Part shown: piece by piece, positions 33,048 to 36,603 of the stretch
Position numbering within the stretch: position 1 is the first letter of the stretch
Layout of the letters: the number at the start of each line of letters is the position of its first letter
Source of the DNA: an uncultured Victivallales bacterium
GTDB lineage: Bacteria > Verrucomicrobiota > Lentisphaeria > Victivallales > UBA1829
Direction of reading: 5' to 3'
Assembly (NCBI GenBank): GCA_944390795.1
Contig: CALXRI010000001.1
Location: 141,092 to 205,091, forward strand
DNA: 64,000 bases
Translations under genes and position numbers: made by a program
The notes under the pieces: model-generated
The model's input: the letters and a program-made list of their open reading frames with translations, nothing else
Told to the model about the DNA's origin: nothing
Database searches by the model: none

Positions 33048-34817
33048 ATGATTTACCGGATCTGGCGTTCCCCCTGGAGCCGCTTCGGCGGAACAACTGC
33101 CGAATATCCCGACGACCGGACGGATGAAACCTTCACCGCTCCGGAGCATTACAGCGATGCGGAGCTTGCCGGTATTGCCGCGGCAGGTTTCAACGGCATC
33201 TGGCTTCATGCCAGATTCGCCCATATTGTCCGGACGGAGGAATTTCCCGAACTGGGGATTCATGCCGAAGAACATGTCGAGAAACTTTCCGGACTGATCC
33301 GGCGTGCGGAAAAACACGGCATCAAGGTCTTTCTGTACGGTCAGGCGCTGCGTGCCGTTCCGGAATCATACCGCTGCTTCTGGCGCAGCCATGCGGAGTG
33401 CGCAGGGCAGAGGGAGTATCTGACGGAGGAATCGCCTCTGACCGGAGAAAGGCGAAGATATCCGACGGTTTCGCTCTGTTCCTCGGTCCCGGCGGTGAAA
33501 CGATTCGTGGAAGAATCCGCCGCGCAGATCGCGGAGAAACTTCCGGATCTGGGAGGTGTCATTCTGATTACCGCGACGGAATTTCCGGGGCATTGCTACC
33601 AGCGGCGTCGGAAAGAGAATCCGAATGCCTGCTATCCCCTTGTGGAATGTCCCCGCTGCCGGGAACGCGAGCCGTGGGAGGTCGCCGCGGAACTGATTGC
33701 GCTGTTCCGGAACGGAATCCGCAGGCATTCCGCAACGATGGCCGTCATCGCATGGAACTGGAGCTGGCAGGGATGGCTGCCCTCTCCGTGCCGCCCTCTG
33801 CTGGAACTGCTGCCGCGCGATGTTGTCGTGATGGCGGATTTCGAGCGCGGCGGCGTGACAGACCTTCCGGAACGTCCGGGATTTGAAATCGACGAATATT
33901 CCCTGCTGTATCCGGGACCGTCGGAACATTTCCGCAGGACCGCCGCCGTCTGCGGGGAAATCGGACTGCCCTTCATGAGCAAACTGCAGATCGGGGCGAC
34001 GCACGAACTCGGAAGCGTCGTATCGATTCCGAATCTTCTCAGCATAAGGGAAAAGGCGCTCTGGCACCGGGCGCACCCGGACACGGGATTCCTCGGGTGC
34101 TGGAACTTCGGCAATTTCCTCAGCGCCAACACGGCGGCCTTTCACCACTTTCTGCATCTCCGGACGCTCTCCGGGGAGGAGGAGGAACTCCGCGCGTTTG
34201 CGGAATCGTATTTTCCCGGATGCGACAGCCGTCTTGTGTATCATGCCTGGCGTCTGTTCGCCTCGGCAATGCGTCATCTTCCATTCTGCATCGGCCCGCT
34301 GTATTACGGTGTGCAGAGTCATGCGCTTGCATACGACGCGGTCTACCGGCCCGGCCCGCTGGAGAAGACGTATGCCGGATGTTCCTACCTGGAGTCCGCC
34401 GTCCGCGGAGACGATCTTTCTCCCGCCTGTGAAATGCTGCATCACGAATTTTCCCTTCCCGAGCTGATCGGCGCATATGCCAAATGCGCCGCGGTCTGGA
34501 TGAGCGGCGTGTTGCTGCTGGAAGCCGGACTGGAAAACTGCGACGACCGACTTGAACTCGGCAATGCGGTAATCTGCGGAATGTGCTGGACCAGCACGGA
34601 GAATGCCTTGCGCGCCTATGCGCTGCGTCTGGAGTGGAATCCCGGGAAAATTCATGAGTTCCGGCATATTGTGAATGCGGAACTGGAGGTGCTCCGGACC
34701 GTGCTTCCATATGTGGAAAACGATTCGAGACAGGGATTTCATGCGGAGGCCGGCTGCCGTCTCTTTGACCCGGAGAGGATTCGGGCGAAAATCGGGATGC
34801 TTGAGCATTGCATTTGA
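33048..34817 (+). CDS. Hypothetical cytoplasmic protein, probable TIM-barrel carbohydrate-active enzyme
   Basis: AAAGFNGIWL, RAEKHGIKVFLY, LPDLGGVILITATE, CPRC, IAWNWSW; AGGAG RBS; no signal peptide. Confidence 0.65.
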   Translation: MIYRIWRSPWSRFGGTTAEYPDDRTDETFTAPEHYSDAELAGIAAAGFNGIWLHARFAHIVRTEEFPELGIHAEEHVEKLSGLIRRAEKHGIKVFLYGQALRAVPESYRCFWRSHAECAGQREYLTEESPLTGERRRYPTVSLCSSVPAVKRFVEESAAQIAEKLPDLGGVILITATEFPGHCYQRRRKENPNACYPLVECPRCREREPWEVAAELIALFRNGIRRHSATMAVIAWNWSWQGWLPSPCRPLLELLPRDVVVMADFERGGVTDLPERPGFEIDEYSLLYPGPSEHFRRTAAVCGEIGLPFMSKLQIGATHELGSVVSIPNLLSIREKALWHRAHPDTGFLGCWNFGNFLSANTAAFHHFLHLRTLSGEEEELRAFAESYFPGCDSRLVYHAWRLFASAMRHLPFCIGPLYYGVQSHALAYDAVYRPGPLEKTYAGCSYLESAVRGDDLSPACEMLHHEFSLPELIGAYAKCAAVWMSGVLLLEAGLENCDDRLELGNAVICGMCWTSTENALRAYALRLEWNPGKIHEFRHIVNAELEVLRTVLPYVENDSRQGFHAEAGCRLFDPERIRAKIGMLEHCI

Positions 34818-34970
34818 ATGCGTGCACTTTTTTCATAAGGGCCGGTCCCGGCGGGGATTGCCATGTATGGCGTTTGCTTTTCCGGAAGAAAAATATTCCT
34901 CTGAAATTCCTGCCGCGTTTTTCGTTCCGCTTGCTTTTTTGAAAATCCTTGATATAGTAACAGATATCTT

Positions 34971-35294
34971 ATGAAAACGAAATATCGATTATGTCTGCTT
35001 CTGTTCCTCTGGCTGGGATGTCTTTTTTATGCGGCGTCCGGAACGGCCGGAGATTTTTCCGTCTGCGCAAATGTTCCTTTTGAAACTTTTTCCTCCGTGG
35101 AGGAAAAGCTCAATGACGATCTTCCCGCACTGCGGCAGACGGTTTCCGGAAAGACTCTGAATGCGTCTTCCGGCAGCGGCGGAACGGAATACGGCATTCC
35201 CGATCTCCGGATCTCTTTCTCCAAGGTGGACCGCGGATTCGGAACGTCCGCCGTCAAGAGTTCCTCGCTGATTTTCATTCCCCTCAGATGCTGA
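34971..35294 (+). CDS. Short exported or leader-like protein ending IFIPLRC
   Basis: Signal-peptide-like N-terminus MKTKYRLCLLLFLWLGCLFYAASGTA; upstream TTGCTT-16-TATAGT promoter with TG (34931-34958). Confidence 0.6.
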   Translation: MKTKYRLCLLLFLWLGCLFYAASGTAGDFSVCANVPFETFSSVEEKLNDDLPALRQTVSGKTLNASSGSGGTEYGIPDLRISFSKVDRGFGTSAVKSSSLIFIPLRC

Positions 35295-35314
35295 TTTCCG
35301 GGCAGATTCATGCC

Positions 35315-35560
35315 ACGATGTTTTGCATCGTCGAAATAGCTTCGTGCAGGACTTTCAGTCCTGCCGCGGTCCAGCTGCGCAAGCTGGTCGCCGGAGGCGA
35401 AATCTCCGAGACCGCGTATGCTTGCATCGCGGTAATTCATGTAAAAAAATCGGGGTGACAGTGCGATGCCTTGCATCGCGGAAATTACTTCGTGCAGGAC
35501 ATCCTGTCCTGCTTCGGTCCGGCTGAGTAAGCTGGTTGCCGCAGGCGAAATCCCCGATAC
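35315..35560. repeat. Tandem duplicated multi-hairpin structured element (148-bp period)
   Basis: Ungapped copies at 35315 and 35463, about 80% identical by eye, each with four hairpins showing compensatory or wobble changes. Confidence 0.85.
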
Positions 35561-35634
35561 GAGCGCGTGCTCTGCGCCGAAACAGTTCACTTTCGCCTGG
35601 AATAGGATTCATCGGAAGGAGTTTTTTTCATTTT

Positions 35635-36603
35635 ATGACACTTTTCATTGTCAGTATCGCCGTTGCATTAGGTGTTTCGTTCTTATGTTCCATTATGGAA
35701 GCCGCTCTTCTGAGCATCACCCCCAGCAAAATCGCCGTCATCTCGGAGCGTCATCCGAAGATCGGGAAAATCTGCCGGGATTTCAAGAAAGACATTGAAA
35801 AACCCATTGCCGTGATTCTGATTCTGAACACGGCGGCTCACACGTTCGGCGCTTCCATCGCTGGCGCCGAGTTTGACGAACTGTTCGGGAATCGCTATAT
35901 CTGGCTGTTTTCCCTCGCGTTTACCGTCATGATGGTGCAGTATACCGAGATTCTGCCCAAGACGCTCGGGGTCCGTTTCAATTCACTGGTCATTGCCTGC
36001 ACGGCGAAAACGCTGCAGTATCTTGTCTGGCTGATGACGCCGCTGATTGCGCTTGTTCATCTGATCAACCGTCCCTTCGACCCGCAGCACAGGAGCGGAA
36101 AAGACGATAAAATCAACATCGGCGAGATCACCGCCCTCGCCGCCATGGCGCGCGAGGCGGAACAGATCACAATGACGCAGGAGCAGATCATCCGCAACAC
36201 GCCGATGCTCGGCAAGCGGACGATCGAGGAGCTGATGCTTCCGCTGGAGAAGGTCTGCATGATTCCGGAAAATGCGTCGAGACAGGAGATTCTGGACCGG
36301 ATGCGGAACGATCCGCATTCCCGTTATCCCGTCCTCGCAAAGGACGGCACGATCACAGGATGTCTCTATGCCAAAGACCTTCTGTTTCATCAGAAGGAGG
36401 AGTGGAAGGTTCTGGTGCGCCCGGTGAAATTCATCGACACGAACCTCTCTCAGCTTGAACTGATCGAGAATGTCGTGAAACTGGATTCCAAACTGCTGAT
36501 GGTCCGTGACCGGAAGAGGAAAATCATCGGCATGCTGACGGTGAACGATGCGCTGCTTGAACTTGTCGGGCAGGAGTTCCCCGAGGCCGCGACCGCCGCG
36601 TAG
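35635..36603 (+). CDS. CNNM/CorC-type (DUF21 + CBS) membrane protein, putative Mg2+/metal transporter
   Basis: VSFLCSIMEAALLS, PIAVILILNTAAHTFGA, EILPKTLG, CBS region with HSRYPV. Confidence 0.9.
   Translation: MTLFIVSIAVALGVSFLCSIMEAALLSITPSKIAVISERHPKIGKICRDFKKDIEKPIAVILILNTAAHTFGASIAGAEFDELFGNRYIWLFSLAFTVMMVQYTEILPKTLGVRFNSLVIACTAKTLQYLVWLMTPLIALVHLINRPFDPQHRSGKDDKINIGEITALAAMAREAEQITMTQEQIIRNTPMLGKRTIEELMLPLEKVCMIPENASRQEILDRMRNDPHSRYPVLAKDGTITGCLYAKDLLFHQKEEWKVLVRPVKFIDTNLSQLELIENVVKLDSKLLMVRDRKRKIIGMLTVNDALLELVGQEFPEAATAA

Follow-up and report, generated by a model that had tools for sequence, protein, structure and literature searches.

A tandem repeat upstream of a CNNM/CorC-type gene in a Victivallales bacterium as a probable pair of palindrome-associated transposable elements

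The window studied here is a stretch of 64,000 nucleotides (nt) from an uncultured Victivallales bacterium. It starts at position 141092 of contig C1 of its own genome, G000, which is a metagenome-assembled genome (MAG) of a gut bacterium (3.44 Mb, 66 contigs, 95% complete). In this window, a doublet of two repeat units lies directly upstream of a CNNM/CorC-type gene. Palindrome-associated transposable elements (PATEs) are transposase-less derivatives of IS200/IS605 insertion sequences (ISs). Analysis of the unit and its relatives indicated that the doublet is probably a head-to-tail pair of non-autonomous IS200/IS605 elements of the PATE type, which would be moved as single-stranded DNA (ssDNA) by a Y1 HUH transposase. 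The features of the locus, including the neighbouring open reading frames (ORFs), are as follows (window coordinates).

34971..35294, plus strand: upstream ORF of 107 amino acids (aa), no Pfam family match
35027-35590, minus strand: ORF of 187 aa running through the doublet, no Pfam match
35305..35441, plus strand: unit 1 (nhmmer match C1:176394-176531, model positions 17-155, 133.5 bits; boundary from the empty-site alignment with G004 and G005)
35308..35310, plus strand: left guide-like triplet T-C-A of unit 1, homologous to model positions 22-24; TGCC and hairpin A come next
35315..35331, plus strand: hairpin A of unit 1, the left subterminal palindrome ACGATG/CATCGT
35346..35400, plus strand: core of unit 1 (hairpin B 35346-35364, hairpin C 35371-35387, hairpin D 35388-35400)
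35407-35409, plus strand: right guide-like triplet C-G-A of unit 1, followed by hairpin E
35411-35433, plus strand: hairpin E of unit 1, the right subterminal palindrome
35442..35591, plus strand: unit 2 (nhmmer match C1:176533-176680, model positions 8-154, 117 bits; boundary from the empty-site alignment)
35456-35458 and 35463-35479, plus strand: left guide triplet T-G-A of unit 2, then CAGT and hairpin A (GCGATGC/GCATCGC)
35494..35548, plus strand: core of unit 2 (hairpin B 35494-35512, hairpin C 35519-35535, hairpin D 35536-35548)
35555-35557 and about 35560-35579, plus strand: right guide-like triplet C-G-A of unit 2 and its right-end palindrome
35616-35623: sequence GGAAGGAG, resembling a ribosome-binding site, of the CNNM/CorC-type gene
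35635..36603, plus strand: CNNM/CorC-type gene (Pfam PF01595, CNNM transmembrane domain, 1.1e-19; PF00571, CBS, 2.4e-9)

The doublet sits between the stop codon of the 107-aa ORF and the start codon of the CNNM/CorC gene, which is a neighbour of the repeat and no part of it. The 187-aa minus-strand ORF is most likely an artefact of the stop-poor repeat; repeat-borne ORFs of this sort inflate gene calls near the repeat copies.

An earlier note on this DNA had described two ungapped copies 148 nt apart with four hairpins each, and this description proved accurate. The direct repeat 35316-35412/35464-35560 is 97 nt long, contains no gaps, is 81% identical and has a spacing of 148 nt, both copies carry hairpins A to D, and their folds were better than those of shuffled sequences. 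The RNA fold of the 346-nt intergenic region had an energy of -142 kcal/mol, compared with -116.3 +/- 5.0 kcal/mol for the shuffles (z -5.18; 0 of 100 as good), and the ssDNA folds had z values of -5.0 for unit 1 and -4.2 for unit 2. The same note had stated that the differences between the copies preserve pairing in all four hairpins. Of these differences, two were truly compensatory, namely that at the foot of A (A-T to G-C) and that at the top of B (T-A to A-T); the changes in C (A-T to G.T) and D (C-G to T.G) were one-sided wobbles. The third partial copy of hairpin A that had been reported was real and constitutes a separate palindrome, the right-end one of unit 1.

Both units are approximately 80-88% identical to the family consensus. 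Unit 1 is truncated at its 5' end: it starts at about model position 19, the A-run linker is gone and the first dozen bases of the element are missing. Because of this truncation, the original target of its left guide is lost. Its 3' end, TTCATG, is decayed from TTCATT, and G35408 of its right guide is complementary to C35438 of this terminal TTCATG. Unit 2 belongs to a subfamily with another right-end palindrome and follows immediately on the 3' end of unit 1 in a head-to-tail arrangement. The G of its left guide fits the C of the TTCAT(G) directly 5' of it (35436-35441), and G35556 of its right guide is complementary to C35588 of its terminal TTCACT, which is likewise decayed from TTCATT. 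The doublet thus consists of two separate, old and decayed insertions, which are taken as fossils.

The same doublet was found at the same locus in contigs from chicken/bird gut metagenomes of two independent studies (X5 and X7). The contigs (X5 records 18 and 21, X7 records 25 and 27) connect the left flank with unit 1, and they connect unit 1, by way of unit 2, with the CorC gene. The public runs provided no RNA evidence, X19 being probably DNA. Metagenome joints that skipped 152-155 nt were discounted, as their sides consisted of only 25-26 letters inside a repeat. In X5 and X7, the summed depth was about 1150-2630 in the core (35344-35417) versus about 54-131 at the unit ends (35307-35343 and 35418-35454). 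Therefore, the core is far more abundant in these communities than this particular unit, and it is presumably common to many element families or species.

The anatomy of the unit, which is about 150 nt long, can be described from a recent copy close to the consensus (G000:C7:35913-36067). The target TTTATT, which lies outside the element, is followed by C, seven A, TTTAGGT, the triplet T-A-A, TACC and hairpin A (GCGATGC/GCATCGC). After hairpin A come an A-rich linker, hairpins B, C and D, a second T-A-A and hairpin E, the 5' arm of which starts with TACCGCG; ATTTATT forms the right end. A T-N-A triplet thus stands 5' of each palindrome. When hairpins A and E are compared, together with their 5' flanks, as direct repeats, 23 of 26 aligned positions match; A is located 22 nt in from the left end of the unit and E 7 nt in from the right end. 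The unit has no terminal inverted repeats, since neither of its termini, (T)CAAAAAAA... and ...GGTAATTYATT, is an inverted copy of the other, and its sole inverted repeat is subterminal.

The 67-nt core with hairpins B, C and D recurs within a different repeat of about 420 nt in G000. This second repeat is partly tandem and has other end palindromes, and its array junctions read ...TCATT/AAAAAAA (the slash marks the junction here and below). It was found at C24:39872-40730, C24:42607-43077, C11:19950-20877, C5:75655-76063, C18:55145-55515, C27:38669-39066, C4:29568-29955 and C43:126-486, and it is probably a sister family that shares the insertion logic of the unit.

The unit is dispersed through G000. 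A 301-nt region gave 49 BLAST matches, blastn with a short word gave 121 merged places, and nhmmer with a profile built from 22 full copies gave 136 matches, 53 of them near full length, which merged to 125 loci with nine abutting arrays. Sixteen of the 136 matches scored at least 160 bits and were near-identical to the consensus. To discriminate between a riboswitch and a DNA element, the earlier note had proposed comparing the expectations of few copies near transporters and of many dispersed copies; the many dispersed copies point to a DNA element. Many copies are located at contig ends, and therefore the repeat breaks the assembly. According to crude ORF calls, 90 of the 136 matches are intergenic although 88.6% of G000 is called coding, and several of the "genic" copies are ORFs made by the repeat itself. 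The unit adjoins unrelated genes without a favoured orientation relative to them, and the flanking genes, again by crude calls, are convergent in 25 cases, tandem in 31 and divergent in four.

Among 31 related genomes, the unit is present in 14, including all five of the same genus, and G003, G004 and G005 contain dozens of copies each. In the species collection, an exact 37-nt piece of the core was found elsewhere only in two Victivallales/Lentisphaeria MAGs. The earlier note could not match the element by eye to M-box, NiCo or yybP-ykoY. Rfam searches with positions 34800-36000 (E <= 10) and with three other copies (E <= 1) gave nothing but chance matches and a neighbouring tRNA. Among the papers listed by a literature search, none joined Victivallales or Lentisphaerae with such repeats. 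The repeat family thus seems to be undescribed, whereas its kind, the PATE, is already known.

The doublet is missing from the orthologous site upstream of the CorC gene in G004 (C232), G005 (C40) and G001 (C5), as found with a 1.5-kb query whose flanks were contiguous. The spacer at these empty sites is about 8 nt in G004, about 26 nt in G005 and about 78 nt in G001, compared with about 290 nt in G000, and the alignment sets the insertion between ...GGGCA and TTCGCC..., i.e., at 35305-35591. The earlier proposal of a tandem element acting as a functional unit in the leader of the CorC gene was therefore abandoned, considering that the two parts are separate decayed insertions and that the site is empty in three congeners.

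Junctions were studied further with 40 copies from G003, G004 and G005, which were compared with the empty sites in G000. In nine pairs of filled and empty sites, insertion was located exactly 3' of a TTNATT motif; the target was TTTATT in two pairs, TTCATT or a near variant in five and TGATT in one, and one pair was unclear. The following empty sites in G000 correspond to filled copies in the relatives.

G003 copy: GCTTCATT/CGAATTC
G003 copy: GGTTCATT/TCTTGAG
G003 copy: CTCATT/TTTACG
G003 copy: GTTCATT/TTCCAT
G003 copy: TTTATT/TCACGT
G004 copy: TATGATT/TGGCAA

The inserted DNA spans from (T)CAAAAAAA, i.e., (T)C followed by seven A, to GGTAATT(T/C)ATT. The target consensus is confined to the 5' side of the insertion point, and insertion occurs in one orientation. 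In 12 recent G003 copies, the left junction motif was TTCATT-like and the right one was TTTATT. Since the two motifs differ, the motif belongs to the target and is not duplicated. A 6-bp duplication of TTTATT had also been considered; the junctions in G003 and G004 led to its rejection.

Of 20 copies examined in G003, at least six correspond to empty sites in G000, and three are common to both genomes; therefore, the family has moved since these genomes split. In genomes with polymorphic insertions, the matched flanks were approximately 74-99% identical. Several insertion targets were the 3' ends of older units, which accounts for the head-to-tail arrays; the 3' end of the unit is itself a motif of the target kind (TTYATT). 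The arrays are always head to tail, and none of 98 clusters was of mixed orientation. The element is thus dispersed, polymorphic between related genomes and recently active. At G000:C7:35790-36067, a tRNA gene with a CAT anticodon is followed by a terminator-like hairpin and then by a unit placed right after the T-run/TTTATT, whereas in G003:C21 this site holds no unit; insertion into terminator tails seems to be frequent.

The orientation of the copies relative to replication was assessed by local GC skew in the draft assembly. With the most favourable setting, and after clustering, the top strand of the unit was on the G-rich strand at 47 loci versus 20 (67 loci with 25-kb flanks and a score >= 50; p = 0.0013), which is no more than suggestive of a bias toward the lagging-strand template. 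The GC skew was coherent along contigs, the skew of coding strands was about 0.004, and skew was almost independent of gene strand (r = 0.12). On contig C1, the skew flips from negative to positive at about 120000-140000, just before the window, and this could mark a replication origin or terminus near the left edge of the window.

The middle base of the left triplet, here called the guide, was found to covary with the variable base of the target. Left ends were parsed in 59 of 110 copies with a left end, and the guide base was complementary to the target base in 46 of the 59 (chi-square p = 3e-10; permutation p <= 5e-6). Copies with guide A had target T in 26 cases, C in two and G in none; with guide G, the counts were T 3, C 11 and G 1, and with guide C, they were T 5, C 2 and G 9. 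Three subfamilies can accordingly be named: TAA with target TTTATT in G000 and G003, TGA with target TTCATT in G003, and TCA with target TTGATT in G004 and in old G000 copies. In G003 alone, all seven A-guides had T targets, and the G-guides had nine C, one T and one G (Fisher 4e-4). The empty sites demonstrate that the targets were present in the chromosome beforehand, so that every insertion counts as a trial of its own and the association cannot be put down to co-inheritance. The covariation suggests that the guide and the target pair. At the right end, where 84 of 121 copies were parsed, guide A was found with T in 37 cases and with C in three, and guide G with C in 26, T in 16 and G in one.

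The conservation of the hairpins was counted in 54 unique near-full copies of G000, with helices defined by hand. Stem A contained 347 Watson-Crick, 16 G:T, 6 A:C and 9 other cells; the corresponding counts were 271, 20, 20 and 13 for stem C and 215, 18, 18 and 18 for stem D. These three stems are maintained mostly via conservation of the sequence; only few true double changes were seen, some of them linked to subfamilies. In approximately half of the copies, hairpin B is replaced or missing (128 non-pair cells), so that the earlier claim of covariation showing selection on all four hairpins is not supported in that form. The pairing of ATCGGGG (35449-35455) with CCCCGAT (35552-35558), which had also been pointed out, exists and is part of the minimum free energy (MFE) fold of unit 2; however, it is poorly kept across the family, with 166 Watson-Crick cells, 17 G:T and 87 non-pairs. 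RNAalifold gave no useful consensus on the mixed alignment because the subfamilies differ. As ssDNA, both strands of the consensus fold equally well (z -6.4 and -6.8).

Judged from its sequence, the unit has every feature by which PATEs are defined at this level and lacks those of a MITE (miniature inverted-repeat transposable element) moved by a DDE transposase, of repetitive extragenic palindromes (REPs) or bacterial interspersed mosaic elements (BIMEs), and of a riboswitch. In Haloquadratum walsbyi, PATE insertions are strain-specific although the genes for IS200-type transposases are pseudogenes (Dyall-Smith et al. 2011, PMC3119063). Both the PATEs and the present unit have neither terminal inverted repeats nor target duplication, carry near-terminal palindromes that resemble each other, have a longer distance from end to palindrome on the 5' side than on the 3' side and possess a short 5' targeting oligonucleotide; in both, homogeneous, recently expanded subfamilies stand alongside heterogeneous old ones, and both move where an intact IS200-type tnpA was not found (PMC3119063). 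The earlier suggestion of an undescribed kind of element therefore falls, as the PATE kind is already in print (PMC3119063). The differences are that the host is a bacterium (Victivallales) here and an archaeon there, that an IS605-type parent sharing the ends of the unit was not found here, that the interior of the unit is a conserved three-hairpin core common to a second repeat family, and that the target motif of the unit equals its own 3' end, giving head-to-tail arrays.

IS608, of the IS200/IS605 family, transposes by "peel and paste". On the left it is cleaved beyond the element itself, 19 nt 5' of the palindrome, and on the right within the element, 10 nt 3' of the palindrome; four-base guides located 5' of the two palindromes pair with these sites, and the target is altered when the left guide is changed (PMC3201880). 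The corresponding distances in the unit are 22 nt on the left and 7 nt on the right, the guides are likewise short and located 5' of the palindromes, and the left guide tracks the target. Insertion occurs in both cases 3' of a short specific sequence, with DNA neither gained nor lost (PMC3201880, PMC5027513). Members of the IS200/IS605 family show an orientation bias to the lagging-strand template (PMC5027513); for the unit, the corresponding counts are no more than suggestive. In contrast to IS608, the unit contains neither tnpA nor tnpB, its covarying left guide base is 6 nt from the assigned foot of the hairpin and not directly at it, a single guide position covaries, and the target motif, TTNATT, measures 5-6 nt and hardly differs between the two ends.

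Among the repeats bcr1-bcr3 of the Bacillus cereus group, bcr1 has a size of about 155 bp and a TTTAT duplication. These repeats resemble the unit in being dispersed, in measuring about 100-400 bp with no known transposase, and in having mobility tied to a TTTAT motif with a mechanism that appears site-specific (PMC6542083). Their sequence and host phylum are unrelated to those of the unit. REPs, BIMEs and REPINs share with the unit the properties of extragenic palindromes that are processed by a Y1 HUH enzyme and are high-copy and non-autonomous (PMC3333891, PMC2817692, PMC3337134). However, REPs are 20-40 nt long, are arranged as inverted pairs and flank a single gene for a REP-associated tyrosine transposase (RAYT), and none of this holds for the unit.

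By analogy with IS608, the following mechanism may be proposed. A Y1 HUH transposase acting in trans would bind both hairpins on the single-stranded top strand, mostly when this is the lagging-strand template. The T-N-A guides would pair with T-N'-A of the cleavage motifs and would thereby position cleavage 3' of ...ATT. The top strand would then depart as a circle, which would be joined into single-stranded target DNA on the 3' side of a matching TTN'ATT. The 3' ends of resident copies would also serve as targets, which would yield head-to-tail arrays such as the doublet. Hairpins B-D would be passenger sequence. The earlier idea of a REP-like ssDNA element on which an HUH nuclease acts is in essence supported, since the anatomy of insertion and the complementarity of guide and target fit IS200/IS605. 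For the CorC gene, the insertion, which lengthens a short intercistronic spacer by 287 nt of structured sequence, is most likely incidental, as would be any effect on the expression of this gene.

A transposase that could move the unit was searched for in G000 and its relatives. With PF01797, only the C-terminal third of an IS200-type tnpA was found in G000 (C3:76606-76746); this remnant is close to a gene of G005:C51, which itself contains an in-frame TGA. A tblastn search with ORFs from 19 TnpA loci of relatives found no further copy in G000. G003 has only a degenerate TnpA pseudogene (PF01797), and G004 gave no PF01797 match at E <= 1e-5. G000, G003 and G004 are the genomes richest in recent copies. 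The intact IS200-like genes of G001, G002 and G005 carry different end hairpins, and none of 23 TnpA loci matched the unit profile at E <= 10. TnpB (PF07282) gave no match in G000. Y2_Tnp (PF04986) gave no match either, but the control was likewise without a match, so this result is uninformative. Among elements of G000 bounded by a left and a right unit end, none was longer than about 360 nt. Because all genomes are draft MAGs of 89-96% completeness, these enzymes are to be regarded as not found and not as absent.

Other candidates for a parent element or transposase were rejected. G000 contains a single intact IS110-family element of 1364 bp (C25:5300-6322). Its ends, ...AATCAAC/AAGGAGATGG...CATAGGAGT/, were defined against the 96% identical copy in G001:C65, and its right end lies directly before the start codon of the next gene in both G000 and G001. 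An apparent echo of the unit ends near this element falls outside the true IS boundaries, and the true ends are unrelated to the unit. An 821-bp element occurs in two copies with 98% identity (G000:C13:1467-2287 and C22:49127-49947); by eye, without a family scan, its reading frame resembles that of an IS5/IS427-type transposase and apparently requires a frameshift, and its ends are also unrelated to the unit. Finally, the gene between two same-orientation units 918 nt apart (G000:C23:20964-22190) was considered as a transposase and set aside, as it reads by eye, without a family scan, like that for endonuclease IV (nfo).

Several of these observations weigh against the assignment to PATEs moved by a Y1 enzyme. 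No cognate transposase was found for the unit in G000 or in the relatives examined. The junction sequences are compatible with a duplication of 3 nt, ATT, and with nothing longer. Thirteen of the 59 pairs of guide and target were non-complementary; three of these are G.T, and several have another unit 5', in which case either unit may have been inserted first. The count at the right end is weaker evidence because both positions lie inside the element, so that shared descent could produce the association. The replication-orientation bias is only about 2:1 and depends on the settings for window and score cut-off, others giving ratios from 54:34 to 16:10 (p 0.04-0.33). In the stems, no strand asymmetry was seen among the 54 copies, G:T and A:C mismatches being about equally frequent. 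The MFE fold of the consensus as ssDNA prefers a long-range end-to-end helix of 11 bp over separate hairpins A and E. Considering this fold together with the rarity of double changes and the loss of hairpin B, the earlier inference of a structure under selection holds for the end palindromes as transposition signals and is unproven for the core.

Another reading is that the family is mobilised by an enzyme outside the current transposase profiles, a host-encoded or highly divergent ssDNA transposase that would read both hairpins. This is unlikely, though G000, G003 and G004 show bursts of near-identical copies and no intact Y1 transposase was found in them, a situation also reported for the PATEs of Haloquadratum. 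If it were true, the element would retarget itself by a change of one guide base, the natural alleles A, G and C leading to TTTATT, TTCATT and TTGATT, respectively.

It is decidedly unlikely that the family is moved by an enzyme of another class, such as an IS110-type recombinase with a bridge RNA, an IS91-type rolling-circle transposase, a serine recombinase or an unrecognised enzyme, with the hairpins acting as an RNA or DNA guide. IS110 and IS607 elements likewise have neither inverted repeats nor duplications (PMC6188088), one intact IS110-family gene is present in G000, and the three copy-rich genomes yielded no cognate Y1 transposase. However, the true ends of the IS110-like element, as set by comparison with G001, are unrelated to the unit, and homologues of it were not found in G003, G004 and G005. 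Moreover, two like palindromes, each with its own 5' guide and with a cleavage motif at a set distance, are the specific arrangement of IS200/IS605.

A classical MITE, mobilised by a DDE transposase with a 3-bp ATT duplication and with the subterminal inverted repeats TACCGCGATGC and GCATCGCGGTA as binding sites, is very improbable. An 11-bp inverted repeat does link the unit ends and forms the helix of the ssDNA MFE fold, and the junctions permit an ATT overlap of 3 nt; an IS5/IS427-like transposase exists in G000, but the ends of that element are unrelated. The inverted repeat is not terminal, as 18 nt on the left and 7 nt on the right are inserted along with the element. The target consensus is asymmetric, lying solely 5' of the insertion point, the arrays are always head to tail, and complementarity between an internal nucleotide and the variable target base has no place in a DDE mechanism.

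Even less can be said for a REP/BIME-type repeat that is kept by a domesticated RAYT (TnpA-REP) and serves host functions such as mRNA stability, termination or protein binding; the probability of this is slight. The unit is intergenic, GC-rich and palindromic, it is over-represented where the flanking genes converge and under-represented where they diverge (the crude calls given above), and several copies stand directly after terminator-like hairpins. However, the units measure about 150 nt and not 20-40 nt, and the arrays are not alternating, none of the 98 clusters being mixed. No GTAG/CGTC tag was seen beside the palindromes by eye in the alignment, no pattern search having been run, and no RAYT-like PF01797 match was found in G000. 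The insertion polymorphism between close genomes corresponds to ordinary mobility.

The tandem metal-sensing cis-regulatory RNA (riboswitch or leader) proposed for the CNNM/CorC gene, which would suit the position between the upstream stop and the CorC start and the strong predicted structure, has practically no probability left and is refuted as a conserved regulator by the 136 matches beside unrelated genes in either orientation, by the empty orthologous sites of three congeners with spacers of about 10-80 nt, and by the absence of an Rfam match at E <= 10.

The assignment of the doublet to PATEs, which was judged probable, has several consequences. A false riboswitch candidate is removed from the annotation, and one class of broken assemblies and spurious ORFs in MAGs of Victivallales is explained by the repeat. 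The guide alleles form a natural series of three, the target base following a single base of the guide, in agreement with the engineering of IS608. A bacterial case is added to the puzzle of PATEs moving where no intact tnpA is found. In addition, the polymorphic insertions are usable as strain markers in chicken/bird gut metagenomes.

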